The position numbers and the translations under genes were made by a program. A DNA stretch of 64,000 bases from an uncultured Candidatus Binatia bacterium (GTDB taxonomy: Bacteria; Desulfobacterota; Binatia; Bin18). Positions within the stretch are counted from its first letter, which is position 1. The number at the start of each line of letters is the position of its first letter. Below are positions 11,261 to 33,761 of this stretch, in pieces. The notes beneath the pieces are model-generated. The model saw only the letters and a list, made by a program, of their open reading frames with translations, did not search any database and had not been told where the DNA came from. Location: NCBI GenBank assembly GCA_965214605.1, contig OZ243961.1, positions 2,048,001 to 2,112,000 on the forward strand, given 5' to 3'.

Positions 11261-11282
11261 TGCTTTCCCCTTTCTTTACGTC

Positions 11283-12810: not shown

Positions 12811-12859
12811 CGAGGGCCGACGCACGCGTCAGCCCTATCAAGAAAGAAATGGTAGTCGC

Positions 12860-13408: not shown

Positions 13409-13437
13409 GTCCTTCCTCCTTAATGACAATGAAAGAG

Positions 13438-14523: not shown

Positions 14524-14946
14524 ACCACCCCCTCCATTGGCGCTTTACTCTAAAAGTATCAACAGGGGATTGCAAGACGGAGAACCAGCGGGTGATGATG
14601 GGTTGGCTGGGATTATCTATACCTTCACTTGACGAATAAGGAATCGATGAAAACCACGGCCGTCCGAAGGCCGGTCCCCAAGAGAACCGAGAACTCGCCG
14701 CCTTGACGACCGGGTCCGCACAGCGGAATTACCGCGTTTTCAACGATCTCACAATAGATCACTTGAGCGGTATCAACCTCAATTTCCGGTGAGAACAATG
14801 CCAGGCTAGGCGGCAGGGTTGCTCTCGTCCCATCTGGGCCGGGGGGTGCTGCCGTGCCCCAGCGCCTTGCGCCCGGCGGGCCGGGCCCGCGACGGCGCGG
14901 GTGCTAGCTGGCTTTCGCCGCCAGGGCGCAGATCAAGGCCGGGGTT

Positions 14947-15437
14947 ATGGTGAGGGGGGTCCGCTGGGAGCAGGCCGATGCGGTGGCCGCGGTTGCGGCT
15001 AACGGGAGGAAATGGCTGGCGGGGCTGCGGGCTGCGGCGCTGATTGCGGTGAGGTCAGATACGCTGTTGCGGGTGTCAGAGGTGGAAGCCCTGGACGTAG
15101 CGGACGTGGATATGGAAGCGCGGACGGTGACGATCCGGCGCGGGAAGACGGATCAGGAGGACCGGGCGGGATGTACCTGGCGACGCTGGGCCGTGTACAG
15201 GCCTGGCTGGACGCGACGGGTAGGAGGGCCGGGGCGCTGTTGCGGGCGGTGACGACAAGCGGGCCGGGGCGGAGGCGGCGGGGCCGGGCGGGATCTGCGC
15301 CGGCGGATTACGGCCCGGGTGCCGGCAGGCGGAAGTGGGCGGCGCTGGCGTCTGCCGGCACCTCGGTGGCGGCGAGGCCGACGGCAGGCCGCTGGTCCGC
15401 CCCGCAGATGCCCAGGCTGGACGCCCGCCATCAGTGA
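14947..15437 (+). pseudogene. Cre-like tyrosine recombinase remnant
   Basis: ALIAVRSDTLLRVSEVEALDVADV...TIRRGKTDQ, then after frameshifts GRWSAPQMP. Confidence 0.7.
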
Positions 15438-15467
15438 GCCAAGCGGAGGGCGGCGGGATCTGCGGTC

Positions 15468-16640
15468 TCAGGAATAGCTGGAGCGAACGCTTGTCAGGGA
15501 GGCAAGCGTCTCAACAACGAGGGTCGCCGCGCGCTCGATTTCTGCGTCGGTCGTGAAGCGGCCGAAGCTGAAGCGAGTGGAAGCCTCGATTGCTGCTGCC
15601 CCGAGACCGAGGGCGCGGAGGACATGGGACGGCTCAGGGATGCCCGAGGTGCAGGCCGCGCCGGTAGACGCGGCGAGGCGGGGTTGGAGAGAGCCGAGCA
15701 GGTCCTGGGCACTGAACCCGGCAAAGCGCAGATTGGCATTGCCGGGGTGGCGGTGGCCCCTGGGAGGCCCGTTGACGGCGACGGAAAATCGACTGCTGTG
15801 CAGCAGCCGTATGAAGGCATCGCGCTGCCGTGCCAGCCGTTTGCGCTCTGCGGCGCCTTCCGGCGTGCGAATGATCTCGGTCGCGGCCGCCATGCCGACA
15901 CAAAGCGCTAACGGGACGGTGCCGGAACGCAGTCCATTCTGCTGCCCACCGCCGTAGATCAAGGGTTCGATGCGCTCTTGCACGTCACGGCGAATGTAGA
16001 GTGCGCCGATCCCCTGCGGCCCATACACCTTGTGACCGGACAGACAGATCAGGTCGGCATGGACAGCAAGCTCGCTCACGTCTATGGCGCACGGTGCCTG
16101 GGCTGCGTCACAATGGAACACGGCACCGTGCGGAGCGAGCAGTGCGGCAATACGGGGAATGTCTTGAATGGTGCCGACCTCGTTGTTAACGGCCATGACT
16201 GACACGACAAGCACTGTATCGTCGAGTCGTTCTGCAAGCGCATCCAAGTTGATAAAACCTTGGCCGTCCACCGGGATGCGCTCTACTCTGAAGCCTTCGC
16301 GCTCTGCGAGCGACCGGGCGGCAGTCAGAACGCATTTGTGCTCGATAGCGCTGACCAGAATGCGCCGTCGCCCTGTGGGTGCCCGTCGCGCCAGGCCGAG
16401 CAGTGCCAGGTTATTCGCTTCGGTAGCGCCGGAGGTAAAAATCATCTCGTCGGTGTCGGCACCAATCAGCGCCGCCACGCATGACGCCGCCTCACGGACC
16501 GCCTCAGCCGCACGCCAGCCTATGATGTGATCGCTCGAATGGGGGTTGCCGAACGCTTCGCGCCAGTATGGCGCCATCTTTTCCACAACACGCGGATCGA
16601 CGGGCGTCGTCGCCTGGTAGTCGGAGTAGATGGTGTTCAT
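15468..16640 (-). CDS. sspA: Cysteine desulfurase (SspA/DndA/IscS-like)
   Basis: YSDYQATTP, GNPHS, SGATEANN, SGHKVYGPQG (PLP lysine) and STGAACTSG (catalytic Cys). Divergent from the ssp operon. Confidence 0.85.
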   Translation of the reverse strand: MNTIYSDYQATTPVDPRVVEKMAPYWREAFGNPHSSDHIIGWRAAEAVREAASCVAALIGADTDEMIFTSGATEANNLALLGLARRAPTGRRRILVSAIEHKCVLTAARSLAEREGFRVERIPVDGQGFINLDALAERLDDTVLVVSVMAVNNEVGTIQDIPRIAALLAPHGAVFHCDAAQAPCAIDVSELAVHADLICLSGHKVYGPQGIGALYIRRDVQERIEPLIYGGGQQNGLRSGTVPLALCVGMAAATEIIRTPEGAAERKRLARQRDAFIRLLHSSRFSVAVNGPPRGHRHPGNANLRFAGFSAQDLLGSLQPRLAASTGAACTSGIPEPSHVLRALGLGAAAIEASTRFSFGRFTTDAEIERAATLVVETLASLTSVRSSYS

Positions 16641-16731
16641 AATAGTCCTTTCGGCCCGAACTCGTACCTAGTAGACAGTACCCCACTCTCTTGGATATTG
16701 TCCATGGAACCGTTCCTTCGGATAAAAAGCC

Positions 16732-17685
16732 ATGTCCCGAGGCCCCTTATACCAAAACGCCTATCGCCCGCAGCTGTCGGGACATGAGACGTTTCCGCTC
16801 CGCTATGGCTGGCTGAAAAAGGCTTTTGAGGCGGTTCAGGCGAGCAAAGACCAGGGGCACAACAAGTCTATTTTCTCGGGCGAAGACGCCATCGCCCGGT
16901 TCGGCCTCGGCAAGAACATGGTTTCCTCCATGCGTCATTGGGCCGCGGCGGCGGGTGTCATTGAGGACAGTAGGGTGGACCGTCCCACCACTCTTGGACG
17001 GTCCCTGTTTGGTGCAGACGGACTCGACCCCTATATGGAAGACCCAGCTACGTCGTGGCTGGTCCATTGGCAGCTGTGCGGCCGTCCGAACAAGACTACC
17101 TACTTTTGGGCCTTCAGCCATTACCCAGCCCTGTCCTTCGAGCGCGAAACTTTGGTCAAAGCCCTTAACAAGCTCGCCAAGGAGCGCGATTGGAGTCGGG
17201 CGGCCGAGGCCACCATCAGAAGAGACGTCATCTGTTTCGTGCGTACTTATGTTGCGCAGCGTTCATCAAGACAAGCCAGCCAGGAAGACGCCCTAGAGTC
17301 CCCTTTGACCGAGCTTGGTCTGATTAAACGGGTGGGCAGGAGCGAGAGGTTCAGATTTGTCCGAGGGCAGAAGCCGTCTCTCGGTCCCGGCGTGTTCTGC
17401 TATGCGGTGACGGACTTCTGGGCTCGGTTTTCCAAAACCGCCGAGACGCTCTCCTTCGAGACCCTGGCTCACGAGCCCGGGTCGCCCGGTCGGGTCTTTC
17501 TGCTGGACGAAAACGATGTGGTAGATATGCTTGCAGGCCTGGAAGAGGTGAGTGAAGGTATCTACACATGGTCGGAGACGGCTGGTCTGAGACAGCTCAT
17601 CCGCAAGTGCGCATTGTCCGTCGAGGGTGCGCTTGACTTCATCAAGCTGGACTACGCTGCAAATGGCACGAGGAACGCCGCGTAA
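16732..17685 (+). CDS. sspB: DUF4007 family protein (SspB-like)
   Basis: SGHETFPLRYGWLKK, GLGKNMVSSMRHW and DPYMEDPATSWLVHW signature of DUF4007. Confidence 0.85.
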   Translation: MSRGPLYQNAYRPQLSGHETFPLRYGWLKKAFEAVQASKDQGHNKSIFSGEDAIARFGLGKNMVSSMRHWAAAAGVIEDSRVDRPTTLGRSLFGADGLDPYMEDPATSWLVHWQLCGRPNKTTYFWAFSHYPALSFERETLVKALNKLAKERDWSRAAEATIRRDVICFVRTYVAQRSSRQASQEDALESPLTELGLIKRVGRSERFRFVRGQKPSLGPGVFCYAVTDFWARFSKTAETLSFETLAHEPGSPGRVFLLDENDVVDMLAGLEEVSEGIYTWSETAGLRQLIRKCALSVEGALDFIKLDYAANGTRNAA

Positions 17686-20600
17686 TGGCCTTGGTTGATC
17701 GTGTCCATATCGCCCGACGCTTCCAGCGTGCGATCCGTATCGACACAGACCTTGCCGACTCAGCAGCTCTGCAGGGGTTCATCTGCCCGCCATCCTCCGC
17801 CAATATCCTCAAGACCATGGCGCGCCACGTTGCCGAGAATGGTCAAGGTGCCTTTACCTGGACTGGCCCTTATGGCAGCGGCAAATCAAGCTTGGCCGTG
17901 GCTTTCAGTGCCCTCCTCAACGGGGACGACGCTCTGAGGGACTATGCGGCCTCGGTTCTCGGCGAAAGGACGGCTGCTGCTGTCTGGGACGCGCTGCCGA
18001 CCCGCAACAAGGGCTGGCGCGTTCTGCCCGTTGTCGGTCGGCGCGACCGCCCAGCCCAGGTGCTTGGCGAAGCCATAGCGGCAGCCGGACTTTTGGCCGG
18101 TAAGGCTCCCCCCCCCCCCCCCAATTCTGGGAGCGAACAGCACACGCTGGAATGCCTCCAAAATCTCGCAGCACGGTATCCACGTGCCAGCGGTGGATTG
18201 TTGGTATTCATCGACGAGATGGGCAAGTTTCTGGAGGCAGCCGCTTACGACGGGACCGATATCTACTTCTTTCAGCAGCTTGCCGAGCTAGCTTCGCGCA
18301 GCAACAAGCGGCTCATCGTCGTCGGTATTCTCCATCAGGCGTTTGAAGAGTACGCCCATCGCTTGGCGCACGAGATGCGTGACGAGTGGGCGAAGATTCA
18401 GGGCCGGTTTGTGGACCTCGCTGTCAACATTAGCGGGGACGAACAGATTGCTCTTCTGAGCCGTGCTATCAAGAGCGACCGTGGGCCGGAGAAGCCGAGC
18501 CCCCTGGCCGAAGGCGTAGCCGCGCTGCGCAGACAGACGTCTCCACCCCTGGCGCAAATACTGGAAGACTGTTGGCCACTTCATCCCATAGTGGCCTGTC
18601 TGCTGGGCCCTCTGTCGCGGCGCCGATTTGGCCAGAACCAACGCAGCATCTTCGGGTTTCTCAATTCCACCGAACCGCAGGGCTTTCGAGACTTTCTGCG
18701 CTCCGCAGGTGACAGCGATCTCTATGCCCCCGACCGCCTGTGGGACTATTTGCGCATCAATCTGGAATCTTCCATCCTGTCCTCACCCGACGGCCACCGC
18801 TGGGCCTTGGCAGCGGATGTCCTGGAACGGTGTGAAGCCGTGGGTGGTGAGGAATTGCATCTGAGGCTGCTCAAGGCCATCGCGTTGGTGGATTTGCTGA
18901 AAGACCGCTCCGGCTTAGTCGCAAACCTTGATCTCCTGAAACATGCGTTGCCCGACTGTGGCTCGGAAGAGATCGGACAGGCCCTGGCAAAGCTGCAAGA
19001 CCAGGCGCTGATTATCTTTCGCAAGTTTAACAACGCCTATGCCGTCTTTGAGGGCAGTGACTTCGACATTGAGCACGCGGTAGAGCAGGCTTTGACGACC
19101 ATCAGCGAGGTAGACTTTGCCAGGCTCAACGCCCTTGCCGATCTGCAACCCATTGTGGCCAAGCGCCATTACCATGCCACAGGCACGCTACGGTGGTTTG
19201 ACGTAGCTCTTCTGCCATTAGTCGCAGTCGAACAGGCTGCGGCCAACTACACTCCTCAGCACGGCGCCGTCGGGGTCTTCTTCCTCGCGATTCCGACCCA
19301 GGGCGAAGGAGACCAGAAGATTGAACATATATGCCGCCGTGCGCTAGAGGGGTCTCAGGACTGGGACATTGTGGTTGGCTTGCCGCAGGACGCTTGGGAC
19401 ATCACGTCTCTTGCGCGGGAGCTGCTGGCCCTGGAGCAGGTCAGCGACGAGACACCTGAATTGCAAGGCGACCAAGTTGCGCGGCGCGAGGTTGAAGCCC
19501 GCATCGTGTTGCTCCAAGGGCGGCTGGAAAGCGAACTGACCCGCGCGTCCAACAACGCGCTCTGGTATCGGAGACACCACCGTGCCGAGCCGCTTACACG
19601 GGCTGAGCTTAACAGCCTGGCATCTGAATTGGCAGACGCGCGCTTTAAGAAATCGCCGCGCTTACATAACGAGCTTTTGAACCGCAGCAAACCGTCGAGG
19701 AATGGGGCGGCCGCGCGGAATACGTTGCTGCGGAGAATGGTCCTCAACGAAGGCGAAGCGCGCCTTGGTATTGAGGGCTTTCCCGCTGAGGGCGGGCTGT
19801 TCGCATCGCTGCTAGAGGCGACCGGGCTGTACCGAAGAACGGTTCAGGGCTGGACCTTTGTCGCGCCCACGGCCAATGACGAAGATACGCGCAACCTTGG
19901 GCCGGCTTGGCAAGCGGCAACGAAGCTTCTGGAAAACAATGCGGACCGCACGGTATCAGCCGCCGAGGTATACGATACCTGGCGTCGGGCGCCGTTCGGT
20001 ATCAAAGACGGGCTGTTACCGGTACTGATGGTAGCATTCATCCTGTCGCACCGTCGCGATCTGGCCTTCTATCGTCAGGGCATCTTTCAGGCGCGTATGT
20101 CTGATCTGGACATGGATTACCTCGTCAAAGACCCGGCCGACATTCAGCTACGCTGGATGGACCTTTCGGATGCGTCGCGTCGGCTTCTTTCCGACATGGC
20201 AGCCATCGTTCGCGAGCTGGACGAGGAAAATGCGTTGACTAACCTGGAGCCCATTGATGTGGCCAGAGGGTTGGTGGCGATCTATGACCGGCTGCCACCG
20301 TGGGTGTCCCGCACGCAGCAGCTTTCCGCTAATGCGAAACAGGTCCGGCAGTTATTCAAGCAGGCCAACGACCCGAACAAGCTGATTTTTGACGACATCC
20401 CCAACCTGCTGGGCGGCGGGACCGCTATCCACGAAGGCGACGCCCTGTGTCGAATCGTAGAGCAGGTGCGCGAGGGACTGAGAGAACTGCGCGACGCCTA
20501 CCCCTCAAGGCTATACCGTCTGCGGGAAACGCTGCTGGCCGAGCTGGAAGTACCAAATGCCTCGCCCCCAATGCTGGCTGAACTACACGACCGTGCTGAG

Positions 20601-21083
20601 AACGTCCGTCAACTAGGCGGCGATCACCGCTTGGAAGCCTTCATCGTCCGACTTGGGCAGTTTCAGGGCAGCAATGAAGAGATGGAGAGCCTAGCCAGTA
20701 TGGCGACCAATAAGCCGGCCCGAAACTGGGTGGACGCTGATATTGACCGGGCAGCGGTTGAGTTGGCGCAAATGGCGCAGCAATTCATTCGCGCGGAAGT
20801 CTTCGCCCATGTCAAGGGACGGCCGGACAAACGACACGCCATGGCCGTAGTGGTGAGTATGGACGGCCGACCGACACCGGTCCATGACGAGTTTGACATC
20901 ACCGACCTGGAACGGGGAAAGGTAGACACACTGATCGACCAGGTAGATGCCGCTCTCAATCACAGCGGCGAAAAACGGCGGAACATCATCCTGGCCGCTC
21001 TGGCCGAGCTGAGCGCCCGGTATCTCAGGGCTGCAGCGGATACCCCGGCCAAGAGCCTGGGCAAGAAGTGGGAGGCGTCGTGA
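17685..21083 (+). CDS. sspC: Large ATPase (SspC-like)
   Basis: Walker A GPYGSGKS, Walker B VFIDEMGKFLE, WPLHP and GQNQRSIFGFL; lies between the DUF4007 and PAPS reductase genes. Confidence 0.8.
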   Translation: MALVDRVHIARRFQRAIRIDTDLADSAALQGFICPPSSANILKTMARHVAENGQGAFTWTGPYGSGKSSLAVAFSALLNGDDALRDYAASVLGERTAAAVWDALPTRNKGWRVLPVVGRRDRPAQVLGEAIAAAGLLAGKAPPPPPNSGSEQHTLECLQNLAARYPRASGGLLVFIDEMGKFLEAAAYDGTDIYFFQQLAELASRSNKRLIVVGILHQAFEEYAHRLAHEMRDEWAKIQGRFVDLAVNISGDEQIALLSRAIKSDRGPEKPSPLAEGVAALRRQTSPPLAQILEDCWPLHPIVACLLGPLSRRRFGQNQRSIFGFLNSTEPQGFRDFLRSAGDSDLYAPDRLWDYLRINLESSILSSPDGHRWALAADVLERCEAVGGEELHLRLLKAIALVDLLKDRSGLVANLDLLKHALPDCGSEEIGQALAKLQDQALIIFRKFNNAYAVFEGSDFDIEHAVEQALTTISEVDFARLNALADLQPIVAKRHYHATGTLRWFDVALLPLVAVEQAAANYTPQHGAVGVFFLAIPTQGEGDQKIEHICRRALEGSQDWDIVVGLPQDAWDITSLARELLALEQVSDETPELQGDQVARREVEARIVLLQGRLESELTRASNNALWYRRHHRAEPLTRAELNSLASELADARFKKSPRLHNELLNRSKPSRNGAAARNTLLRRMVLNEGEARLGIEGFPAEGGLFASLLEATGLYRRTVQGWTFVAPTANDEDTRNLGPAWQAATKLLENNADRTVSAAEVYDTWRRAPFGIKDGLLPVLMVAFILSHRRDLAFYRQGIFQARMSDLDMDYLVKDPADIQLRWMDLSDASRRLLSDMAAIVRELDEENALTNLEPIDVARGLVAIYDRLPPWVSRTQQLSANAKQVRQLFKQANDPNKLIFDDIPNLLGGGTAIHEGDALCRIVEQVREGLRELRDAYPSRLYRLRETLLAELEVPNASPPMLAELHDRAENVRQLGGDHRLEAFIVRLGQFQGSNEEMESLASMATNKPARNWVDADIDRAAVELAQMAQQFIRAEVFAHVKGRPDKRHAMAVVVSMDGRPTPVHDEFDITDLERGKVDTLIDQVDAALNHSGEKRRNIILAALAELSARYLRAAADTPAKSLGKKWEAS
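18108..18122 (+). repeat. C15 homopolymer inside sspC
   Basis: GGCT-CCCCCCCCCCCCCCC-AATT, currently in frame (PPPPP). Confidence 0.9.
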
Positions 21084-21094
21084 GGAGGGCGGAG

Positions 21095-21922
21095 ATGGAA
21101 CGGCATGTGCTCGGACTGTCCGGCGGGCGCGACAGCGCAGCGCTCGCGGTCTACATGCGGGAGAATCATCCTGAGCTGGCTATTGACTACTTTTTTACCG
21201 ATACTGGCAAGGAGCTGCCGGAGGTATACGAGTTCCTGGTCAAGCTCGAAGGCTTCCTGGGCAAACCCATCCTACGCTTGAACCCGGATCGGGATTTCGA
21301 CTTCTGGCTCAAGCAGTACAACAACTTTCTGCCCTCACCGCAGACACGCTGGTGTACGCGCCAACTCAAACTTCGGCCGTTCGAGCAGTGGATTCGGCCC
21401 TTCTTGGACGACGGAGATCGCGTCTACAGCTATGTGGCTATCCGCGCGGACGAGGAATACCGCGAGGGCTATGCCTCAAAGCACGCTCACCTTACGGTGC
21501 GGCTACCCTTCAAGGAGGCTGGTATCGACAAATCGGGTGTCCTGGAGATTTTGGAGGGTACGGGCCTCGGCTTGCCCGAGTACTACGAATGGCGGACCCG
21601 TAGCGGCTGCACGTTTTGCTTCTTCCAACAAAAGATTGAGTGGGTGCGGCTGAGAGAGCGCCATCCGGACTACTTTGAGGAAGCCAAGGCGTATGAGAAA
21701 GACGCGGTCGAGCACGGCTCGCCTTTCACCTGGAGCCAAGGTGAATCGTTGGAGGAGCTTTCCAAACCCGAGCGTATGAGGCAGATCAGAGCGGACCACG
21801 AACGGCGGGTTGCTCGTATGCGGTCCAAGGTTCGGCCTAATCCGCTCAGGCCGGATAGTGAGCCTTTGGATATTGATGATCTTTACGGTCAGGCAAAGGT
21901 TTGTCTTGCATGCCACAAATGA
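21095..21922 (+). CDS. sspD: PAPS-reductase family protein (SspD-like)
   Basis: PP-loop LSGGRDS, RWCT, RSGCTFCFFQ and C-terminal CLACHK. Confidence 0.85.
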   Translation: MERHVLGLSGGRDSAALAVYMRENHPELAIDYFFTDTGKELPEVYEFLVKLEGFLGKPILRLNPDRDFDFWLKQYNNFLPSPQTRWCTRQLKLRPFEQWIRPFLDDGDRVYSYVAIRADEEYREGYASKHAHLTVRLPFKEAGIDKSGVLEILEGTGLGLPEYYEWRTRSGCTFCFFQQKIEWVRLRERHPDYFEEAKAYEKDAVEHGSPFTWSQGESLEELSKPERMRQIRADHERRVARMRSKVRPNPLRPDSEPLDIDDLYGQAKVCLACHK

Positions 21923-24051
21923 CAAGATTGACCCCATCTTCAGCAACCGAAAAATCCTCGAACGCTGCACAATTGGCTCCCTGGGGCCGCTCCCCAACGC
22001 CTCTCCTGCCGTGTTGGTATCGTGAGATGCTCTCCGAGTTCCGGCTCCCTAAAGCAGTGAGGAGGGCCAATTCAGCGGTTGCGACAGTCGGCGAGCTCAA
22101 TACGTTCTGGAAGGAAGCACGGTCACCGCTTGACCATAAGGGCCTCCTTTCTCTGGTGGAGCTTGTTGGCCGCCATCGTCCTCCGCAGGACTATGTCGTC
22201 ATTCCTGCAGAGATTGATCACCGTGAGATCGCCCAGTATCCGCTGCGGACACGAACGGCCAATATCCTCCGCCGAGAGGGCTTGCTTGAGGGGCATAGCG
22301 TCCTCTCGGTGGGTGAATTGCTGTCACTTAGGGGCTTCGGTATTCTCTCTCTCCTGGATATCATGTGCGTTGCTGAACTCGCGCTGACAGGACGAGTCTC
22401 ACCGTTTGCCGCCCCTAGAGCTGAGAGCATCGACGGTGAAGAACCAAGCCCGCAGTTTGCCACCCCTAGAGCTGAGAGCATCGACGGCGAAGAACCAAAG
22501 CCGGAGACGAGTGCTTGGAGCAGTGCAGTCGAATTATTTAAGCCGCTGCTCGCCGCTGCCCGCGAGTTCTACGGAGCTGGAACCGTGGGCGATGCATTGC
22601 GCTTGGACCTCTCTGGGCTCGCCGCAACGATCGGAGTTGCGCCGGCTCTCGAGTCCCTCCCAATCCAGGATCTGACAACTCGCCGCATATCCAACACTGT
22701 GACCGAACGGCTTGCATCGCTGCTGGCATCAATGTCGGCAACGCGGAAGCTGATTCTCGAACAGCGAATCTTCGTGCCCAGTCCCCGTACGCTCCAGGAG
22801 CTGGCAGAACAGATCGGAGTCACAAGAGAACGTGTAAGGCAGCTCGAGGTACGAGTGTTGGACACCGTCGAGGACGCTGTTGGATCCGAGATCAGCATTC
22901 TCGCAACCCTCCTTATCGAGCAGCTAGATCCTCTCATCACATCTGCCGAATTCGAACGTTTGGTCGCCGATGTGTTCGCCGATGGCTCGCCGATGGAACC
23001 AGCGAGCCATCTAGCCTGTCGGATGCTCAAATCCCGGCTCAATTACTCGTGTGCCGCTGGTATCTGTTTCAACGAGGCTGCAACTGCCGTCGTTGCGGCA
23101 CTACGGGAGAGGGCTGGCGAGGTTGCCGACGATGTGGGCCTGATTGACGAGGAAGCCTTGTGTGATCCTTTCCTAGAAGAGTGGAACGGCTACATTTCGC
23201 AACTTATTGAGCTATGTGAGCTTCATAGGATCGGGGGTCGTCTCGCGCTAAGAGACACCAGTAAAGCACGAGTCAAAGCTGCGCTTCTCAATATTGGACA
23301 AGCAGCTACAAAAGAGGAGATAGCGGCAGTCTGCGGGCTTGATCCTCCCCGGGTCGGCGGCCACCTTTCCGTGATCCCTACAGTGGTCAGGGTGGACAAG
23401 ACCCGTTGGGGGCTCGCCGAATGGACCGACGACGCATACCAAGGCATCCCGGCCGAGATCATTCAGCGGATCAACGAAGACGGAGGGACCACCCCTCTTC
23501 AGAGGCTCCTTGATGAGCTGCCGAGACTATTCCAAGTGAAGGAATCCAGCGTCCGAGCTTATGTCGGTGCGCCACAGTTCACACTCTCCGACGGTTACGT
23601 CAGTTTAGCCAACGAGTCGTCAATCACCCTCCGCGATCTCGACGATGTCATCGATGGTCGTGACGCGTCCGGTAACCCATATTGGACGTTTCTCGTTGAG
23701 AACCGTTACCTTGATGGACATAGTCTTGTGGGCTTCCCGCCGGAGCTGGCCCGGGAACTTGGCTGTGAGCCCAACGATAAGACACAGGCACTCGTGACCT
23801 ATCCGGAAGGCAGCAGCGCACTGTCTGTTGTCTGGCGGCTCGCTTCGCTTACGGGTGCCAGCCTGGGACATCTCGCTGATCCGCTCCGACGACTCGGGGT
23901 GAGCGGTGGAGATCGCGTTTGCCTGGTCATCAAAGGTCCTGGTGTCATCGACCTGCGCCGGGAGAGCATAACGGTGTCGGTGGAGGAAAGCTCCGACACG
24001 GCGGCGGATTCTTTGCTTGCACGCATGAAGAACCGCCGGAGGGTGATATAA
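21919..24051 (+). CDS. RNA polymerase alpha-CTD-like and sigma70 region-4-like multidomain protein
   Basis: PLRTRTANILRREG...VGELLSLRGFGILSLLDI (alpha-CTD-type HhH) and RTLQELAEQIGVTRERVRQLE (sigma-4 HTH). ATGA overlap with the sspD stop. Confidence 0.7.
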   Translation: MTRLTPSSATEKSSNAAQLAPWGRSPTPLLPCWYREMLSEFRLPKAVRRANSAVATVGELNTFWKEARSPLDHKGLLSLVELVGRHRPPQDYVVIPAEIDHREIAQYPLRTRTANILRREGLLEGHSVLSVGELLSLRGFGILSLLDIMCVAELALTGRVSPFAAPRAESIDGEEPSPQFATPRAESIDGEEPKPETSAWSSAVELFKPLLAAAREFYGAGTVGDALRLDLSGLAATIGVAPALESLPIQDLTTRRISNTVTERLASLLASMSATRKLILEQRIFVPSPRTLQELAEQIGVTRERVRQLEVRVLDTVEDAVGSEISILATLLIEQLDPLITSAEFERLVADVFADGSPMEPASHLACRMLKSRLNYSCAAGICFNEAATAVVAALRERAGEVADDVGLIDEEALCDPFLEEWNGYISQLIELCELHRIGGRLALRDTSKARVKAALLNIGQAATKEEIAAVCGLDPPRVGGHLSVIPTVVRVDKTRWGLAEWTDDAYQGIPAEIIQRINEDGGTTPLQRLLDELPRLFQVKESSVRAYVGAPQFTLSDGYVSLANESSITLRDLDDVIDGRDASGNPYWTFLVENRYLDGHSLVGFPPELARELGCEPNDKTQALVTYPEGSSALSVVWRLASLTGASLGHLADPLRRLGVSGGDRVCLVIKGPGVIDLRRESITVSVEESSDTAADSLLARMKNRRRVI
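22404..22498 (+). repeat. 51-bp tandem duplication
   Basis: FA(A/T)PRAESIDGEEP is encoded twice, with units starting at 22404 and 22455. Confidence 0.9.
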
Positions 24052-24052
24052 C

Positions 24053-26302
24053 GTGCTCGCCGACGAACCTACACTTCGCCCAGGGCTTTATCGGTTACCT
24101 GACCATCCAGTCGGACCGAGCGTTTTCATCCCTGCGTTTCGATCCGCCACATCCATCCGGGGTGCGTTTGGCTGGTTCACGTCCGGCTGGATAGCAAGAC
24201 TAGCTCCTGGGCTTGCCGAGTACCTCAATCGCCACGATACAACGCCAATTGACTTCACCGTTGCACCGGCTCTCTTCGCCGCAGAGCGAGCAGTCATCGA
24301 ACAGGCTTATAGCATGTCGGAAGAAGAGGCAGCACGACGGGTCGCTGACGTGTTCGTTGACGGCCGAGTTAAGGCCTCAGCACTTGGTCGCCACGCTTTG
24401 GATTGCCTGGCCTGGATGGTTGCCACTAGACGGCTGCATCTTCGCATCGCCGTCCCAAAGGCAGCAGCAAACTACCATCCCAAGATTTGGCTATTTGACG
24501 ATGGCACCCACCAAGTCCTTGCTCGCGGCTCCGGCAATGCTACCGGGCGTGGGGTCGCCTCCGGTGTCGAACACCTCGATGTTGATGTCACATGGTTCGA
24601 CTACAGTCGCGCTCGTGTTCGAGACGGCGTTGAAATCCTCAACGATTGGGCACAAGGACGTAGCGACGGAATTGAGCGCGTAGTCGAACTCCCTGAAGCC
24701 CTGGAACAGAACATCGTTTACACCGCTCCAGAGATCGCACCGAGTCAAGCCGATTACATCAGGGCAGCGAGCGAGGACGGGAACCCGGCGTGGGCGGTCG
24801 ATCGGACCGAATCGTTACGGAAACGGTTTGCGCCAATGCGCTCTGCAGAACTCCCTCGCCTAACGATTCCCAGGGGATTAGAGTGGCAACAGGGTCCCTA
24901 CGCCCATCAAAACGAGGCGGTTACGGCCTGGGAATCAGATCCAAATCCCGAACAGGGTACGATCTCCATGGCAACTGGAGCAGGCAAGACGCTCACGGCA
25001 CTGATATGCGCTACTCGTGTACAAGATCGCCTCTCTGATAAGCCCCTACTCATTATTATCTCGGCACCATCCATCCCGCTCGTCGTTCAGTGGCGAGAGG
25101 AGGTTAAGAGATTCGGAATTCATGCCACTGTCCCGAGCCTCGAACCTAACACCGACTTCGCTATAACCAACCTGTTTCGAGGTCTCGTCTCAGGCGGAAC
25201 CCATATAGCAATCGTAACCAATAACCTCCTCTGCTCGCCGGCATTTCAATCCACCGTGGCGCTCAAGATCAGACGCGCCAACTCTTCGGTCCAGACAATG
25301 TTCATCGCTGACGAGGCCCACACACTCGGCGCAGACGGATTCATCTCGAACAAGCCGGACTTCTTCGAGCGACGACTTGCCCTTTCAGCTACCCCCGAAC
25401 GTCAGCACGATCCTGACGGTACCGAAGAGATATTCGATTTCTTCGGGCCACCAGTCTACGAGTTTGGACTCGAACGAGCCATTGGATTCTGCCTAGCTCC
25501 ATATAACTACTACGTCCACGCCGCCACTCTCGATGGCGACGAGCTGGACGAGTTCGAGGCCCTCACTGGCCGGATTGGAGCAGCTTTTGGTCGAGACCTC
25601 GACGATGACGACGATACCCTAACTAGCTTGCTGATCGCGAGGAGAAGGATCATCGAAACTGCCCAAGCCAAGCTGTTACTCCTCCGGACAGTGCTCGAAC
25701 AACGCGGCCCACGTTCGCTGGAACAGACGCTGATCTACGCCTCCGCCAAGAATCCTGAGCAATTCGATAACATTGCCGCGACGCTTACCGATCTCGACAT
25801 TAGGTGGGCTCCCGTCACCCAAGATACAACTGCCAACCGACCATTACTCGCTCAGACCCTTGAGACATTTAGTGAGGGTGGCTACCAGGTCCTGTTAGCC
25901 AAGAAAGTCCTTGATGAGGGCATCGATATCCCTAGCATCAGGGAAGCATTCATTGTTGCTTCATCCACAGTTAAACGAGAATGGGTCCAGCGACGAGGCC
26001 GCGTGCTCCGACGCCATCCCGAAAAGCCCTGGGCGATCATTCACGACTTCCTCGCGCTACCACCGACACAAATGCTCCAACCTGAGGAAGAGACAAACAT
26101 GAAGAAGATCATCCGGGTCGAGTTGGACCGCGCCTACTCCTTCGCTGCACATGCGAGGAACGCTGTTGGTGATGAAGGAGTGCTCTCCGATCTCCAGAGG
26201 ATTAGAACCGCCTACTGGCCCGAGGAAGAACGTTCGCCGATCCTGCGGCAAGCCGGTGACAGCATCATCGCTGCTGCAACGCCACGAGGAAAACCATGGT
26301 AA
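24053..26302 (+). CDS. PLD-nuclease/SF2 helicase fusion (PbeA-like)
   Basis: N-terminal YHPKIWLFDD...GSGNAT (HxK/GSxN); helicase motifs ATGAGKT, DEAH, SAT, DEGIDIP and QRRGRVLR. Confidence 0.8.
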   Translation: MLADEPTLRPGLYRLPDHPVGPSVFIPAFRSATSIRGAFGWFTSGWIARLAPGLAEYLNRHDTTPIDFTVAPALFAAERAVIEQAYSMSEEEAARRVADVFVDGRVKASALGRHALDCLAWMVATRRLHLRIAVPKAAANYHPKIWLFDDGTHQVLARGSGNATGRGVASGVEHLDVDVTWFDYSRARVRDGVEILNDWAQGRSDGIERVVELPEALEQNIVYTAPEIAPSQADYIRAASEDGNPAWAVDRTESLRKRFAPMRSAELPRLTIPRGLEWQQGPYAHQNEAVTAWESDPNPEQGTISMATGAGKTLTALICATRVQDRLSDKPLLIIISAPSIPLVVQWREEVKRFGIHATVPSLEPNTDFAITNLFRGLVSGGTHIAIVTNNLLCSPAFQSTVALKIRRANSSVQTMFIADEAHTLGADGFISNKPDFFERRLALSATPERQHDPDGTEEIFDFFGPPVYEFGLERAIGFCLAPYNYYVHAATLDGDELDEFEALTGRIGAAFGRDLDDDDDTLTSLLIARRRIIETAQAKLLLLRTVLEQRGPRSLEQTLIYASAKNPEQFDNIAATLTDLDIRWAPVTQDTTANRPLLAQTLETFSEGGYQVLLAKKVLDEGIDIPSIREAFIVASSTVKREWVQRRGRVLRRHPEKPWAIIHDFLALPPTQMLQPEEETNMKKIIRVELDRAYSFAAHARNAVGDEGVLSDLQRIRTAYWPEEERSPILRQAGDSIIAAATPRGKPW

Positions 26303-26517
26303 ACAATTACGATCGTATCTACGCCGAAATTGAGAAGGAAGCACTGCGTTCTTCTCAGGAGCAGAACATTGACTCGGATGTGCTTGTTCGCTTAGTCATG
26401 GAAATCGTGAACCTTGAGGACCAGCACCACACCAAGAATGTTTCGCGCATCAAACAACGCATCGAACAGATGATCCTCACCACAGCGAGGGACCAAATGA
26501 TGCGCGAGGGATTGTAG
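26296..26517 (+). CDS. Small helical protein associated with the CxC ATPase (PbeB-like)
   Basis: 73 aa; overlaps the helicase stop and sits 2 bp before the ATPase. Confidence 0.65.
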   Translation: MVNNYDRIYAEIEKEALRSSQEQNIDSDVLVRLVMEIVNLEDQHHTKNVSRIKQRIEQMILTTARDQMMREGL

Positions 26518-26519
26518 CG

Positions 26520-28754
26520 ATGTTGAGATTCTGTCGAATTGAGATCAACAACTTCGTCTGCTTCAAAGACATCGTGATCGAACCCTCCATCGATCCAGAG
26601 AGACGACTCACTGTACTAAGAGCGGAAAACGGTTCGGGAAAAACTACTCTTCTCCGCGCGCTCCGATGGGGTATGTATGGCGAAAAGGGCCTACCCGGAG
26701 ATTCGACTCGGTTCTCACTCCACCCTTCCTGGTGGCACCCCAACGGCGACGGTATCAAGACAGAGGTTAAGATTGAGTTCGAGACCGACGGCTCCACCCG
26801 GTACTCCACAGAGGGCAGCCCCATCACCACCGTCTATCATCTCGTACGGTCTGTCACTACGATTGGCAGGCCGACAGCCAAGGATGATGAACCCGACTTC
26901 CGCCGTCTCAACGAACATACACAACTAATGGTCAAGGAGAGTGGTGGGACATGGACTCGACATACTGTGGGAGTTGACATCGTCGTCGAACAGCTTCTCC
27001 CGTGGAATCTCCGCGATTTCTTCGTGATGGATGCTGACGAAGCGACTGACTTCGTCGGCGGCGGCGAGAACAAGGTCATGAACCGTCAGGACGTTATCGA
27101 CAAGACAACCGCAGCCGTGCACAGCCTTCTAGGTCTCGATGTCTTCAAGAAGGCATCGGAGCGGGTGACGGCTCTCGCCCGATCATTCGGTTCGCAGGCC
27201 ACAAAAGCTATTGGCGACACAGACCTTGACGCGCTCTGGGCGGAGCTTGAGCAGCTCAGGGCGGAGGAGGCTGACCTCACGAAGAAGATCGTGGAACAGC
27301 AAACCCAGAAGAGAGAGCTAGAAGACCAGCTGCGACGGCGGCAGGACGCCCTCGAAACCGAACTCAAAGGCATTGGTGCCGCCGAGGAGCTGAGGAGCCG
27401 CCTCACAGCGAACCGAGATCGGTCTGCGCAAGCCACTAAGGCACGGAAAGCTACGCTCAGCCACCTGGCCGGCACCCTCGAATCGACCGATCTTCTCGCC
27501 TCGCTCGCGCGTAGCGAGCTCGCCACGGCCTACCGCCTCCTGCGGCCGCTCTATGAACAAGGCCACATTCCCCTCACACATCTCAACTTCGTACGAGACC
27601 TCCTCGAATCCGGCACTTGCGTTTGCGGTCAAGACCTCTCCAACGATGACGTGCCTCGCCGACATGTGGAAGAGCGGATTGCTGAATCCGCAACACAGGA
27701 GGACCGCGCCAACTACCTCGGTCAGCTCCACGATGCGGCGAAGTCTCTTAGGGACCAAGCGGTGGCCCCACAATGGGAAACGCGGAGCCGACGACTCGCG
27801 GCGGACCTCGCTGAGATCGATAAGGAGATCGCCAATCTCGCGCTTGAAAAGCGAGATATCGACAACAAACTCGACGCCCTTGATGCAGATAAAATAGAGA
27901 TCATCCGCGACGAAATCGAGGCGCTAAAGACCCAAGTGGGGAGCCTGCAAAGCACCATCGCCATCAACCAGAGTCGGCATCCAGCCCTCCTCAGCACCAT
28001 CGATTCCCACCAGAAGCAGATCGACCAGCGGCACCGTAACGAACGAGCTGCTGCTGACAAACGGGCGGCGGAGGGCATGGCGCATCTCGTCGTCACAATC
28101 CTTGAACAGGCCTACGGTACTATCCAGGCAGAACAGGTCGGCGATCTCTCTCAGCGAATGAATCGCCTCTTCACTCAGATGGCAGCAAACGTCTCGGACG
28201 AAGACTACGAAGAGATACCACGCGACAAGGCGACGCTCAAAATGATCGCCGAAGTCGGCCTTCGGCCTGTCGACGACAAGTCCGACAACTACGAGATCTA
28301 CGCGTTCAACCGCCGAGGCCGTTCCATGCCTCCAACCGAGATCAATGGTGCTTCCCGCCGAGTGCTCGCATTGTCATTCGTGCTCGCGCTGTGCGCTGAG
28401 TCTCGGACTCATGCCCCCTTGATTGCAGACTCGCTACTCAACTTCATGTCAGGCACGGTACGACGCAACACGCTCCGTATCACCGCAGAGAATTCCAACC
28501 AACCGATCCTTCTGCTGACCGGAGCTGACCTCCAAGCGCCGTCAGAAGCTGAGCTTGTGTCTCGGTACGCCGGCGCTACCTACACTCTCACCGGCCAGTG
28601 GGATGCAATCGCTGCTGGTTCAGGAGGAGACGTCGTGCACTGGACCGAACAACGTCCGGTGTCACTCGTTTGCCCATGCGGACCCCGTCAATATTGCGAT
28701 ATCTGCGAACGGACCGGACAAGCTGAGTTACCGGGATGGAGCAGGAGGACCTAG
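26520..28754 (+). CDS. SMC/Rad50-like ABC ATPase with CxC zinc hook (PbeC/DndD-like)
   Basis: Walker A AENGSGKTT, long coiled coils, central CVCG hook, Walker B LIADS and a C-terminal CPC...CDIC. Confidence 0.8.
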   Translation: MLRFCRIEINNFVCFKDIVIEPSIDPERRLTVLRAENGSGKTTLLRALRWGMYGEKGLPGDSTRFSLHPSWWHPNGDGIKTEVKIEFETDGSTRYSTEGSPITTVYHLVRSVTTIGRPTAKDDEPDFRRLNEHTQLMVKESGGTWTRHTVGVDIVVEQLLPWNLRDFFVMDADEATDFVGGGENKVMNRQDVIDKTTAAVHSLLGLDVFKKASERVTALARSFGSQATKAIGDTDLDALWAELEQLRAEEADLTKKIVEQQTQKRELEDQLRRRQDALETELKGIGAAEELRSRLTANRDRSAQATKARKATLSHLAGTLESTDLLASLARSELATAYRLLRPLYEQGHIPLTHLNFVRDLLESGTCVCGQDLSNDDVPRRHVEERIAESATQEDRANYLGQLHDAAKSLRDQAVAPQWETRSRRLAADLAEIDKEIANLALEKRDIDNKLDALDADKIEIIRDEIEALKTQVGSLQSTIAINQSRHPALLSTIDSHQKQIDQRHRNERAAADKRAAEGMAHLVVTILEQAYGTIQAEQVGDLSQRMNRLFTQMAANVSDEDYEEIPRDKATLKMIAEVGLRPVDDKSDNYEIYAFNRRGRSMPPTEINGASRRVLALSFVLALCAESRTHAPLIADSLLNFMSGTVRRNTLRITAENSNQPILLLTGADLQAPSEAELVSRYAGATYTLTGQWDAIAAGSGGDVVHWTEQRPVSLVCPCGPRQYCDICERTGQAELPGWSRRT

Positions 28755-28766
28755 AGGCAAGAGTCC

Positions 28767-29252
28767 ATGAACTACTTCACCACTTTATTGTCTTCTCAAA
28801 CCCACACCCTTCGCTTTCCGAGCCAGGATAAGGACGCCATCGAACGGTACGTGCTCCAGCATCAGAAAGGGACTGTTAGCCAGGAGCACGCTCCCTTCCG
28901 GCGCCAGGTGGACTTCTGGGCTTTCGCTATTGCCACCGCTCTCGCGCGTAGAGTACCGCCGCTCAAAAAACCCTCTAGTCGCTGGGGACGGAAGTTCGCC
29001 GACACCAGATCCGTACAGATGCCGGATGGGCTGTGCGAAATGCTCGCCGTCATCGCTCTGACCACGCTGGGCCACGATCATGAAGGTATAGACGACCCCT
29101 CGCAGATCATTGAGCTGGGCAACCGGCTCGCAGGGGCTGGATGTCCAGCACTCCTCAAGCAGCTTAGCAACCCGGATCTGCGTACCACCGTTCTCGACAA
29201 AGCCCTGGAGTTCGCAAGGCTTCTACAATCCGAAGCAAACACCGCGGCCTAA
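28767..29252 (+). CDS. Small protein ending the operon (PbeD/DndE-like)
   Basis: 161 aa with PFRRQVDFWAFA; position matches the last gene of CxC-ATPase modules. Confidence 0.55.
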   Translation: MNYFTTLLSSQTHTLRFPSQDKDAIERYVLQHQKGTVSQEHAPFRRQVDFWAFAIATALARRVPPLKKPSSRWGRKFADTRSVQMPDGLCEMLAVIALTTLGHDHEGIDDPSQIIELGNRLAGAGCPALLKQLSNPDLRTTVLDKALEFARLLQSEANTAA

Positions 29253-29564
29253 CAACAGCGTCAGTGAGCCGCCTGATCCAAGTCCGCCGGCGGGCATGGC
29301 GTAAATGCCTGTTTTTCGGTGAGGGGCTCAGTATGGACCAGCGCGATTACGGCCGCCTACGGCCCTGTAGAGCAGGCGGTTTTCGTCGGCATAGTCGAAA
29401 ACGGCCGGTTGAGACCCGTTCTGGGCCAGGCTGCCCCCCTTCCGCCTCCCTCCAGGACCAGCGTTCCTCTTCGCGCTGACTGCACCCGGCCGCGCCCGGC
29501 TGTCCACTGCGTTCTGACTTCGCATTGGCTCCACGATCTCTCTGCTGACCGCGACGCGGCGCTC

Positions 29565-30295
29565 TATCCGAGAGCGCCAGTTGGGATTTCACGAAATTCA
29601 AGCGAACCATCCGACACTCGATAGAACACGGCAGAGAGAACCCCAACAACAAAACACGTTCGCTCCCGAAAACTCCTCATACCTTCTTCCAGCTATGATC
29701 CGGCATTGTAGATGAAAACAGGGCTGCCGCTGCTTCCCGGCAACACCGCTGCGTCGATGAGGAAGACCGGCTTGCCGTCATAGGCAACTCCCAGTGGTGT
29801 CGCCGTTATCCCCCTTCTGACAATCGGGAGATTATTGGCGCGATCAAACACATCATTGTCCTCTCTGGCATTCAGTCTCGCCAGAGCGTCACTGTCAGGA
29901 AGAATGGTTGCTGAGAGGCACGAAAAGAAGGGGAGCGTGCCATTCTCCGAGCCCCGCGAAGATCGGGTTCAGCGGAAGCAGCGCGATATCTACATTTTTG
30001 TCAGGATGCCCCGTCCACCATTGCCACTCCATCGTGCCTACGCTCACCCGCATGGGGCTTCCCAACTCTGGCGCGTGACCATCTTTTGGGGCGCTTCTCG
30101 TCCTGTGGAAGTCCCCGTGGGTTGCGTTCGCTATGACGTGCTTATTCGTGACCAAGAACATACCGGTCAGTTCATCCGTTGTCTTTCGAGCTCTTCCACG
30201 TATGCTCTCAAGATGAACCCTGTCCTGATAGACGGCGCGGTCTGAATACGAACCGTCACGAAGACAAGCTGATCTGCTCCCGTTTCTCCTCTCAT
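29565..30295 (-). pseudogene. Trypsin-like serine protease, disrupted
   Basis: Triad motifs FLVTNKHVI, DIALLPL and IDAAVLPGSSGSPVF lie in different frames, with internal stops. Confidence 0.7.
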
Positions 30296-30398
30296 GAACT
30301 CTCTATGCTGGCGAGAGGGACGAGAGCGAATAAGCATAGATCATCCATCGGGCAACCTCTTTGCCGAGCTTTACCCCGCCCAGCCGGGGGCCGGGCGG

Positions 30399-30746
30399 CT
30401 AGGCGGTGCGCCGCAGCAACTCGGCCAACACCAGGCCCTGGCGTTCCAGCGCCTGGCCTTGTTGGGTCAAGGCTTGGGTCATGGCCGCGCCCTGGCGTTC
30501 CAGCGCCTGGCCTTGTTGGGTCAAGGCTTGGGTCATGGCCGCGCCCTGGCGTTCCAGCGCCTGAGCGATGACGCGGGTACTCTCCTGCATGTTCTTGGCC
30601 ATCACGTCAATTTCCTTGTCGCGGCGCGCCCCGGCTTCCTTCATCCGCACCAAGCCCACAACAATCGCAATCATCCCCACAATTCCGACGACAAGCTGCA
30701 ACGTCATGACCACCAAGCGTCCCCACTCGAAGAAACTCGATTCCAT
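30399..30746 (-). CDS. Small single-TM coiled-coil protein with internal repeat
   Basis: RBS AGGAGG, one TM segment, then QALERQGAAMTQALTQQG repeats. Paralog at 34449-34682. Confidence 0.65.
   Translation of the reverse strand: MESSFFEWGRLVVMTLQLVVGIVGMIAIVVGLVRMKEAGARRDKEIDVMAKNMQESTRVIAQALERQGAAMTQALTQQGQALERQGAAMTQALTQQGQALERQGLVLAELLRRTA
30435..30563. repeat. 54-bp tandem repeat (about 2.4 copies)
   Basis: Units start at 30435, 30489 and 30543. Confidence 0.92.
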
Positions 30747-33727: not shown

Positions 33728-33761
33728 TTGGGCCTCCTGCTCTCCTTCACAACACAGATGC

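Follow-up and report, generated by a model that had tools for sequence, protein, structure and literature searches.

A candidate DNA-reading adaptor between an SspABCD phosphorothioate writer and a PbeABCD-type nuclease-helicase cassette

Results

Protein X lies between an Ssp writer and a PbeABCD-type cassette

We analyzed a 64,000-nucleotide (nt) stretch of contig OZ243961.1 from an uncultured Candidatus Binatia bacterium (assembly GCA_965214605.1; hereafter the window), in which an open reading frame (ORF) at 21919-24051 encodes a 710-amino-acid protein that we refer to as X. The genes upstream of X write phosphorothioate (PT) marks on DNA. All four of SspA, SspB (DUF4007), SspC and SspD were present and adjacent according to PADLOC, and make up a full PT-writing module (Table 1). 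The start codon of X is the ATG at 21919, with ATG 21910 and TTG 21901 as alternative in-frame starts; it occupies 21919-21921 and overlaps the sspD stop codon TGA (21920-21922) in the form ATGA. The TAA stop of X (24049-24051) is followed after 1 nt by the GTG of the next gene at 24053. An earlier note on this DNA, made from its letters, had placed X between a PT writer and an effector, coupled to sspD by an ATGA overlap and 1 nt from a helicase gene, and this layout was confirmed at both junctions. From sspB through the last gene, every junction either overlaps or spans 1-12 nt, and X is translationally coupled to both sspD and pbeA.

The genes downstream of X have the layout of a complete PbeABCD-type cassette. 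The PADLOC PbeA match to the first of them spans residues 16-704 of its product, Pfam identified ResIII and Helicase_C, and the N-terminal part carries an H-x-K-x4-D motif, read from the translation. The 73-residue ORF that follows overlaps the pbeA stop and ends 2 nt ahead of pbeC; its likeness to PbeB is one of position and size alone, and a 75-residue ORF holds the same place in two further loci (L150 and L151). The PbeC-like ATPase matched Pfam AAA_23 (E = 4.1e-16) and has C-V-C-G mid-protein, in its coiled-coil region. A second Cys-rich motif, C-P-C-G ... C-D-I-C, was observed at its C-terminus (28650-28754) and may form a zinc ribbon, besides the C-x-C hook in the middle of the protein. 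The last gene, a 161-residue ORF, is kept after pbeC wherever the contig extends far enough. It had no match in Pfam (DndE included) or PADLOC, and a 15-sequence profile of it found no PDB sequence at E ≤ 10; no DndE signal was detected in the Pfam and PDB profile searches. We also considered SspFGH as the identity of the effector, and this reading was rejected on the architecture described for SspFGH. The earlier note's 'helicase' and 'ATPase' thus proved to be a PbeA-type HKD nuclease-superfamily 2 (SF2) helicase and a PbeC-type CxC ABC ATPase; the PbeABCD-type cassette to which they belong had gone unnamed there. A PbeABCD, or CxC-ABC-ATPase-centred, system was reportedly described by Xiong in 2019. 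In the available part of a re-annotation of this system, PbeA is HKD + SF2, PbeB is a small, rapidly evolving protein encoded between PbeA and PbeC, PbeC is a CxC ABC ATPase and PbeD is a DndE cognate (PMC10853773).

X is predicted to consist of nucleic-acid-binding folds

The structure of X was predicted using AlphaFold2 on 77 homologues, and domains were called from VIA-align ranges, hhalign and HMMER. The model had a mean predicted local distance difference test score (pLDDT) of 90.4, with low confidence only at residues 1-15, 161-191 and 686-692. As modelled, X is built only of nucleic-acid-binding folds, namely an RNA polymerase (RNAP) alpha C-terminal domain (CTD)-like helix-hairpin-helix (HhH), a sigma region-4 helix-turn-helix (HTH), four winged helices (WH) and a B3/EcoRII-N-like barrel. 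Parsing of the predicted structure bore out the alpha-CTD-like and sigma-4 folds named in the earlier note, and resolved its 'further HTH-like segments' into the four winged helices at residues 338-566; the B3/EcoRII-N-like barrel (579-688) and the conserved basic C-terminal helix (692-709) had not been seen. Pfam searches over the whole of X matched only Sigma70_r4 and HTH_Crp_2. No catalytic Pfam domain was detected in X, in 27 aligned family members or in 30 members that are longer or distantly related, in which the non-core extras were more alpha-CTD, Sel1 repeats or HTH. Foldseek searches with the whole model or with residues 1-340 returned nothing at E ≤ 0.001.

The sigma-4 domain was supported by several comparisons. 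Pfam Sigma70_r4 matched residues 268-315 (E = 4.8e-8; 32.8 bits against a cut-off of 24.1) and was found in 27/27 family members scanned, and the family profile matched PDB sigma region-4 chains (E = 3.4e-12 for 1tty_A). Superposition on sigmaE region 4 bound to -35 DNA (2h27_D) gave a VIA-align Z of 9.1 with a root-mean-square deviation (rmsd) of 2.5 over 69/69 aligned residues. The sigma-4.2 recognition helix aligned almost letter for letter with that of T. maritima RpoD region 4 (1tty_A), and E304, R305, R307 and Q308 of X were invariant in 27 sequences. Sigma70_r2 was matched in 0/27 family members at E ≤ 0.01, in agreement with the earlier note, which had recognised no sigma region 2. NCBIfam sigma models matched residues 250-323 only, with 15-37 bits against cut-offs of 43-800, and RpoH and RpoD fell far under their cut-offs. 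Residues 198-256, immediately ahead of sigma-4, were examined as a possible sigma region 3; we do not claim this assignment, as Pfam Sigma70_r3 was found in just 1/27 members and the one VIA-align row (7ye1_F) was of low quality, with an rmsd of 16.6.

The alpha-CTD-like domain was identified at the profile and fold levels. The Pfam alpha-CTD model PF03118 did not reach X itself; it scored over cut-off in some relatives (e.g. P0219 at 34.4 bits) and was carried by 14-81% of members in related ESM-Atlas clusters. We ran hhalign between residues 90-160 of the family and 28 RpoA CTDs that come from the host genome and from 27 genomes in the same phylum. This analysis gave a probability of 97.2% (E = 3.4e-11, 50 columns), and eight other X domains used as controls gave at most 3.9%. 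The domain is 32% identical to the host's own RpoA CTD over 50 columns, and R112, A114, N115, G141 and S144 of X line up with that protein's R-S-A-N and F-G-x-x-S motifs. These motif residues are DNA-binding determinants of alpha-CTD. The best fold matches on residues 97-157 were six alpha-CTD entries (1z3e_B, 5vi8_T, 4mex_A, 8w9z_A, 2max and 1doq), with Z = 7.1 and rmsd 2.7 over 60 aligned residues for 1z3e_B and Z = 6.8 and rmsd 1.6 over 51/53 for 5vi8_T. No Pfam match to the N-terminal dimerisation and core-assembly domain of the alpha subunit was found anywhere in X. Since sigma region 2 and the alpha N-terminal domain are both missing, X does not qualify as a sigma factor or as an alpha subunit.

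The winged helices and the barrel have no counterpart in RNAP. Units 445-504 and 505-566 were the best matched of the four winged helices. HARE-HTH was not detected in these units, PF05066 giving no match either in the genome at E ≤ 10 or in isolated X domains; PF05066 was found in 12% of one related ESM-Atlas cluster. The barrel matched the VRN1 B3 domain (4i1k_B; VIA-align Z = 8.7, rmsd 3.1, 99 aligned), followed by 4ldx_A (ARF1; Z = 7.5), 1yel (Z = 7.2) and the EcoRII N-domain (3hqf_A; Z = 7.2), and Foldseek added the LlaJI.R1 N-domain and BfiI (6c5d_B, 2c1l_A). This likeness is at the fold level only (7-12% identity), and the sole match at the sequence level was MazE_antitoxin at E = 0.18. 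Residues 19-96, analyzed alone, had no Pfam match at E ≤ 10, and no VIA-align row covers the N-domain alone. The disordered linker (161-191) of X contains a direct repeat, imperfect and some 16 residues long, with P-R-A-E-S-I-D-G-E-E-P occurring twice; most homologues are without it.

A conserved core is flanked by ends that vary with the neighboring genes

To define the family of X, we used a word-indexed search, which listed 121 proteins, almost all carrying PF04545 and some 600-900 residues long, and an exhaustive search, which yielded 279 representative clusters at E ≤ 1e-30. Database names given automatically to these proteins are generic ('RNA polymerase factor sigma-32 family protein', 'alpha C-terminal domain-containing'), and the record of a distant relative reads 'sigma factor-like helix-turn-helix DNA-binding protein'. 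Hidden Markov models of the individual domains, cut from the family alignment, were run on 260 family proteins. The full core, comprising sigma-4, the winged helices at 445-504 (WH445) and 505-566 (WH505) and the B3 barrel, was present in 221/260. Among these 221 members, 172 had the alpha-CTD-like domain, which was therefore missing in 49, 133 had the N-domain and 137 had the C-terminal helix; some members carried the alpha-CTD unit twice, had the N-domain + alpha-CTD unit duplicated, or bore an additional B3 barrel at the N-terminus. Mean identity to the X of the window was highest for WH445-504 (58%), WH505-566 (59%) and B3 (50%), and lowest for WH338-402 (29%), the most variable folded part, and the linker (11%). 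The family is sporadic, with 2/61 genomes positive among the window's relatives at E ≤ 1e-20.

Gene context was examined in 32 loci, consisting of the window, two loci from metagenome-assembled genomes (Tepidiformaceae and Acidimicrobiales), one relative genome and 28 metagenome loci. A first contig scan with a sigma-4 motif pattern gave mostly ordinary sigma factors, and 2/80 loci (L001 and L002) were kept as family; the 28 metagenome loci came from a search with a C-terminal-only alignment, and L084 was left out because it overlaps L083. The window's eight proteins were mapped onto the 31 further loci by tblastn, and non-matching neighbors were annotated with Pfam and PADLOC. This analysis revealed a nuclease/helicase-type cassette directly downstream of X in 32/32 loci; X was never seen without one. 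The cassette began with a close PbeA (at least 59% identity) in 23/32 loci and with a divergent PbeA (31-37% identity) in 4/32, consisted of GIY-YIG + DndB-like + SNF2 helicase genes in 3/32, and began with a C5-cytosine methylase in 2/32, one of which (L111) also had an SNF2 helicase and an EcoRII-N protein. The close PbeA was followed by PbeC and the 161-residue ORF wherever the contig reached that far. In 20/32 loci sspD was directly upstream of X. An ATP-dependent nuclease/helicase cassette thus accompanied X in every locus, and a DNA-modification module in most of them.

The presence of the individual domains of X was then set against this context. Sigma-4, WH445 and WH505 were found in 32/32 loci and the B3 barrel in all but L107. 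The C-terminal helix motif was present in 23/23 loci with a close PbeA and in 0/9 others. Where sspD immediately precedes X, the N-domain (20-96) was present in 14/20 loci, which covered three effector types; in the other loci the count was 0/12. The alpha-CTD-like domain was present in 22/32 loci, and was missing in L085-L088 and L090 despite the same sspD-X-pbeA order as in the window. These co-variation and context counts overstate independence, because some loci are near-identical (L086/87, L088/90, L092/93/94 and L108/109).

Region 4 of sigma and the alpha-CTD are the RNAP surfaces most often hijacked by phages. X might be an RNAP surface mimic, a decoy or guard that is struck by phage takeover proteins and then releases or activates the PbeA nuclease-helicase, as the earlier note had proposed for one of its two readings. 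Both RNAP-derived domains are real homologues, sigma-4 is present in 221/221 full-core members as well as in every locus, with a recognition helix near-identical to that of housekeeping sigma factors, the alpha-CTD-like units are at times duplicated, and phage proteins on sigma region 4 exist in the PDB (e.g. 4g6d, G1 ORF67 with sigmaA domain 4). On the other side stand the low identity to the host's RpoA CTD and the NCBIfam scores far under cut-off reported above. About half of X consists of winged helices and a restriction-enzyme-type B3 barrel with no RNAP counterpart, a writer that marks self is present so that restriction-modification (R-M) logic suffices without a decoy, and in BREX PglW and BrxL domains of these types are taken to be DNA-binding modules (PMC12839542, available part). 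With the alpha-CTD dispensable in a third of loci (10/32), half of the protein unrelated to RNAP and the BREX precedents, this reading loses ground, and we consider it very unlikely. The full case, in which a phage protein binds or modifies X, frees the C-terminal helix from PbeA and makes the nuclease-helicase fire, is slimmer still; if true, it would give a phosphorothioate R-M system a further, effector-triggered layer.

We also considered whether X works for the writer and brings SspBCD, or other modification enzymes, to DNA as a factor for site selection or loading. The ATGA coupling to sspD and the restriction of the N-domain to sspD-adjacent loci are in line with this, as is the placement of X relatives next to a C5-methylase (L110 and L111) or to a desulfurase/PAPS-reductase-like module (L095-L102). 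However, PT modification in published systems reportedly needs no more than SspABCD (PMC8092258, available part), X stays with the effector block and apart from the writer in L001 and L100, L104 has X-pbeA with no writer within 10 kb upstream, and the C-terminal helix tracks effector type. We therefore give a role in writing little credence. In L001 the block X-pbeA-pbeC-o161 is upstream of sspA/sspB, an order which indicates that X travels with the effector block.

Several of the loci have gene sets that differ from that of the window. Upstream of X in L095, L097, L098, L101 and L102 are genes for a cysteine desulfurase, a weak PAPS-reductase-like protein (SspD model, 3e-10), a GHKL-type ATPase (PADLOC candidate PDC-M33A, 2.1e-33), DUF6339 and a methyltransferase-like protein. 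This set stands beside X-pbeABCD in place of sspBCD, and in L100 it is downstream of the cassette on the opposite strand (L100:16557-20276); it may be another sulfur or DNA-modification writer. A Dnd-like set is present on the other strand in L112. In L002:12809-16334, L105:11013-14520 and L106:2709-7469, sspD-X is followed by a small GIY-YIG gene, a DndB-like gene (~473-490 residues) and an SNF2 helicase gene, with an HNH protein added in L106, and X is without the basic C-terminal helix. Distant relatives of X (33-36% identity, core only) precede a C5-cytosine DNA methylase in L110:872-4141 and L111:16-5527; in L111 the methylase is followed by the SNF2 helicase and the EcoRII-N-domain protein, which is stand-alone. 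The C5-methylase context shows that the X family is not restricted to phosphorothioate systems. When the window was compared with L083 (G036), identity was 55% for SspB, 60% for SspC and 64% for SspA, versus 83% for SspD, 75% for X, 84% for PbeA, 78% for PbeC and 78-80% for the 161-residue ORF; faster evolution of SspB and SspC, or their exchange, may account for this.

Ssp-Pbe coupling also occurs without X

At E ≤ 1e-30, 8/61 relatives had PbeA-like genes, of which five were full length. Two genomes, G035 and G034, join SspABCD straight to a Pbe cassette of another lineage with no X (L150, G035, 5904-17413; L151, G034, 3504-14983), through a 4-nt overlap junction in L150. Their SspD is 80-82% identical to that of the window and their PbeA 36-37%, followed by the 75-residue ORF, PbeC and a 147-residue ORF. 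PbeA lineages with and without X share ~34-37% identity. No description of this X-less arrangement turned up in the literature searched. A third genome, G027, has a Pbe cassette with neither Ssp nor X nearby; its PbeA-like gene (L144, G027:C1:3160559-3162655) contains one in-frame TAA, which may reflect a broken gene or a sequencing error. Haloarchaeal PbeABCD has likewise been described without an X-like protein. Because of G034, G035 and the haloarchaeal systems, X is to be regarded as an accessory and not as a general requirement of Ssp-Pbe coupling.

Regulators are often optional in this way, and X could control transcription of the operon as a giant analogue of DndB or of R-M C-proteins. 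It would bind promoter-like DNA via its sigma-4 and alpha-CTD-like domains and time or limit nuclease-cassette expression with respect to that of the writer. The intact -35-type recognition helix of sigma-4, the UP-element-type contact residues of the alpha-CTD-like domain, the many winged HTH (wHTH) units and the DndB-like genes that go with one alternative cassette would all suit such a protein. Against it, X is placed inside the operon with codons overlapping or abutting on both sides, and not at a promoter. Promoter-like sites in 14500-30500 showed no excess (5, versus 4.1 ± 1.7 in shuffles), and terminator-like sites in the operon region were not commoner than in shuffles. A protein of ~700 residues that carries seven or eight DNA-binding modules plus a C-terminal helix specific to the effector is also far beyond known controllers, and X was never found with the writer alone in the 32 loci. 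Both the controller role and the timing function that it would entail are, in our judgment, rather unlikely.

The operon adjoins a possible mobile defense island

Beside the operon, 32831-55513 looks like a mobile defense island. Its genes are listed in Table 1.

Table 1. Coordinates of the Ssp-X-Pbe genes, the parts of X and the genes beside the operon in the window
Feature	Coordinates	Strand	Basis or remark
sspA, cysteine desulfurase (writer)	15468..16640	-	PADLOC SspA 4e-128; Pfam Aminotran_5 1.7e-76
sspB (DUF4007)	16732..17685	+	PADLOC SspB 5.4e-107; Pfam DUF4007 9.4e-88
sspC (BrxC-like ATPase)	17685..21083	+	PADLOC SspC 1331.8 bits
sspD (PAPS-reductase-like)	21068..21922	+	PADLOC SspD 3.3e-138
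X, 710 residues, DNA-binding domains only (as modelled)	21919..24051	+	AlphaFold2 model; family of 279 representative clusters
pbeA-like HKD nuclease + SF2 helicase	24053..26302	+	PADLOC PbeA 1.3e-151; TIGR04095 6.3e-94, under its cut-off
73-residue ORF, pbeB position	26296..26517	+	fills pbeA-pbeC gap
pbeC-like CxC ABC ATPase	26520..28754	+	PADLOC PbeC 4e-44, DndD 2.4e-19
161-residue ORF, pbeD (DndE-cognate) position	28767..29252	+	position conserved after pbeC
X residues 20-96, helical N-domain	21976..22206	+	pLDDT >93; invariant W22, G23, P28, P31
X residues 97-157, RNAP alpha-CTD-like HhH	22207..22389	+	hhalign vs RpoA CTDs; VIA-align
X residues 161-191, disordered linker	22399..22491	+	pLDDT <50; mean identity 11%
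X residues 198-256, helical segment ahead of sigma-4	22510..22686	+	helices in model
X residues 257-335, sigma-70 region-4 HTH, recognition-helix motif TRERVRQ	22687..22923	+	Pfam 4.8e-8; 2h27_D Z 9.1
X residues 338-444, two divergent winged-helix-like units	22930..23250	+	secondary structure; tandem-WH matches, e.g. UFL1, SelB
X residues 445-504, winged helix	23251..23430	+	VIA-align Z 8-8.9 vs HmgR, TtgV, Zalpha, MarR-type wHTH
X residues 505-566, winged helix	23431..23616	+	VIA-align Z 7.6-7.9
X residues 579-688, B3/EcoRII-N-like pseudobarrel	23653..23982	+	VIA-align; Foldseek
X residues 692-709, conserved basic C-terminal helix, L-L-E-R-M-K-N-R-R-R type	23992..24045	+	seen with close PbeA
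ArdC-like anti-restriction protein	32831-33853		
ParA-type ATPase	36921-37934		
Schlafen/AlbA_2 + HATPase_c_4 protein	37931-39217		
Serine resolvase	39269-39985		
Stand-alone DndB-like gene	40470-41309		
Prokaryotic E2 + JAB protein	43270-45579		
HTH_3 + M78 peptidase pair	46869-48118		
1354-residue HTH_3 protein	49086-53150		
N6/N4 DNA methylase	53489-54280		
ThiF E1-like gene	54536-55513		

Discussion

We favor, with modest confidence, the reading that X is a non-enzymatic, modular DNA-reading adaptor of an SspABCD + PbeABCD-type PT restriction system, placed between writer and effector. X most likely guides or licenses the nuclease-helicase rather than mimicking the polymerase. The adaptor role fits because X has DNA-binding folds only, a cassette follows it in every locus sampled, and its ends co-vary with writer and effector; of the two readings offered in the earlier note, the DNA-binding adaptor is thus the one that accords with the data, and the RNAP mimic or decoy gained no support.

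Such an adaptor could operate as follows. The conserved core of sigma-4, winged helices and B3 barrel would bind DNA and read a site or its modification status, while the basic C-terminal helix would dock on the cognate PbeA-type effector complex and the N-domain (20-96) may communicate with the Ssp writer or with its product or mark. X would then target or license the HKD nuclease-helicase on unmodified (foreign) DNA and restrain the nuclease on PT-marked self DNA. If X reads DNA or its modification state and docks the nuclease, it would be the piece that decides self versus non-self, and would offer a handle on how partial PT marking protects a genome. The two ends of X, one tracking the writer and the other the effector, suggest a general plug-and-socket recombining of writers and effectors.

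Several observations weigh against an adaptor role of this kind. Writer and effector are coupled directly in G034 and G035, and the haloarchaeal systems also lack X. The co-variation counts are confounded by descent, near-identical loci included, and the N-domain is absent from 6/20 sspD-adjacent loci. The X relatives that stand with a C5-methylase or other putative sulfur-modification genes indicate that the core is not a PT-specific reader in all members.

The closest known relative of the cassette is PbeABCD itself. The four genes after X match it, the two small ORFs by position and size, and both are linked to PT-writing genes. As described, PbeABCD is coupled to DndCDEA and has four genes, whereas here it is joined to SspABCD and preceded by a fifth gene for a 710-residue DNA-binding protein; PbeD is a DndE cognate, whereas the last gene here gives no DndE match. 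X is absent as a PbeABCD component from the listing in the available part of PMC10853773, and PADLOC gives just a weak MzaA match for it. In the literature searched, including the available parts of PMC8092258, PMC10853773, PMC7464106 and PMC12839542, with subscription journals and supplements outside the search, no description of the X family or of the Ssp-X-Pbe arrangement was found. SspE and SspFGH are, like the cassette here, effector modules that follow sspBCD and use the Ssp PT mark, but their described architecture is unlike X and the Pbe cassette, SspFGH being made up of the Walker-A protein SspF, SspG and the FtsK-like SspH (PMC8092258, available part). The same part of that paper places sspE or sspFGH beside only ~15% of 2,678 sspBCD clusters. 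SspB-SspC-SspD clusters are thus mostly without a known restriction partner, and the present locus shows an Ssp writer and a PbeABCD-type cassette linked via an extra protein.

A close parallel among proteins of PT-linked restriction modules is DndG. This triple-wHTH protein is proposed, in the available part of PMC10853773, to be the target-recognition or modification-discriminating subunit of DndFGH. Like X, it is a non-enzymatic multi-wHTH protein inside such a module; compared by description, DndG has three wHTH units, whereas X has four winged helices plus sigma-4, alpha-CTD-like and B3 domains. SspB is called a relative of DndG in the same source (PMC10853773, available part), but the WH region of X (338-570) showed no profile similarity to it (hhalign probability 0.6% against a 15-sequence SspB alignment). 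By analogy, the role of X would resemble that proposed for DndG in DndFGH and that of the DNA-recognition domains of type IIE/IIS restriction enzymes. The EcoRII N-domain, the BfiI C-domain and the LlaJI.R1 N-domain share the fold of X 579-688, although the barrel of X is not fused to a nuclease.

The RNAP-derived modules also have parallels. Region 4 of sigma-70 factors and the CTD of RNAP alpha are homologous to the modules of X, which is without sigma region 2 and the alpha N-terminal domain. MzaA, the sigma-70-like protein of the MZA defense system, resembles X in being ~700 residues long, defense-associated and equipped with a sigma-4 HTH; the match is limited to the sigma-4 stretch (residues 260-319; NF041931 20.6 bits versus a cut-off of 800; PADLOC E = 0.0035), and the HTH of MzaA is C-terminal, unlike that of X. 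In the available part of PMC12839542, type-2 BREX PglW has an alpha-CTD-like domain and three wHTH, and BrxL a SIGMA-HTH, as DNA-binding parts. Likened by description, X shares with PglW an alpha-CTD-like domain followed by wHTH units, and with BrxL a sigma-type HTH, which is N-terminal in BrxL. In these proteins the modules are segments of enzymes (a kinase/nuclease in PglW and an AAA+ protein in BrxL), whereas X stands alone and combines both RNAP-derived modules. Taken together, these comparisons place X, as we cautiously judge to be probable, among the non-enzymatic DNA-recognition subunits of modification-based restriction systems.

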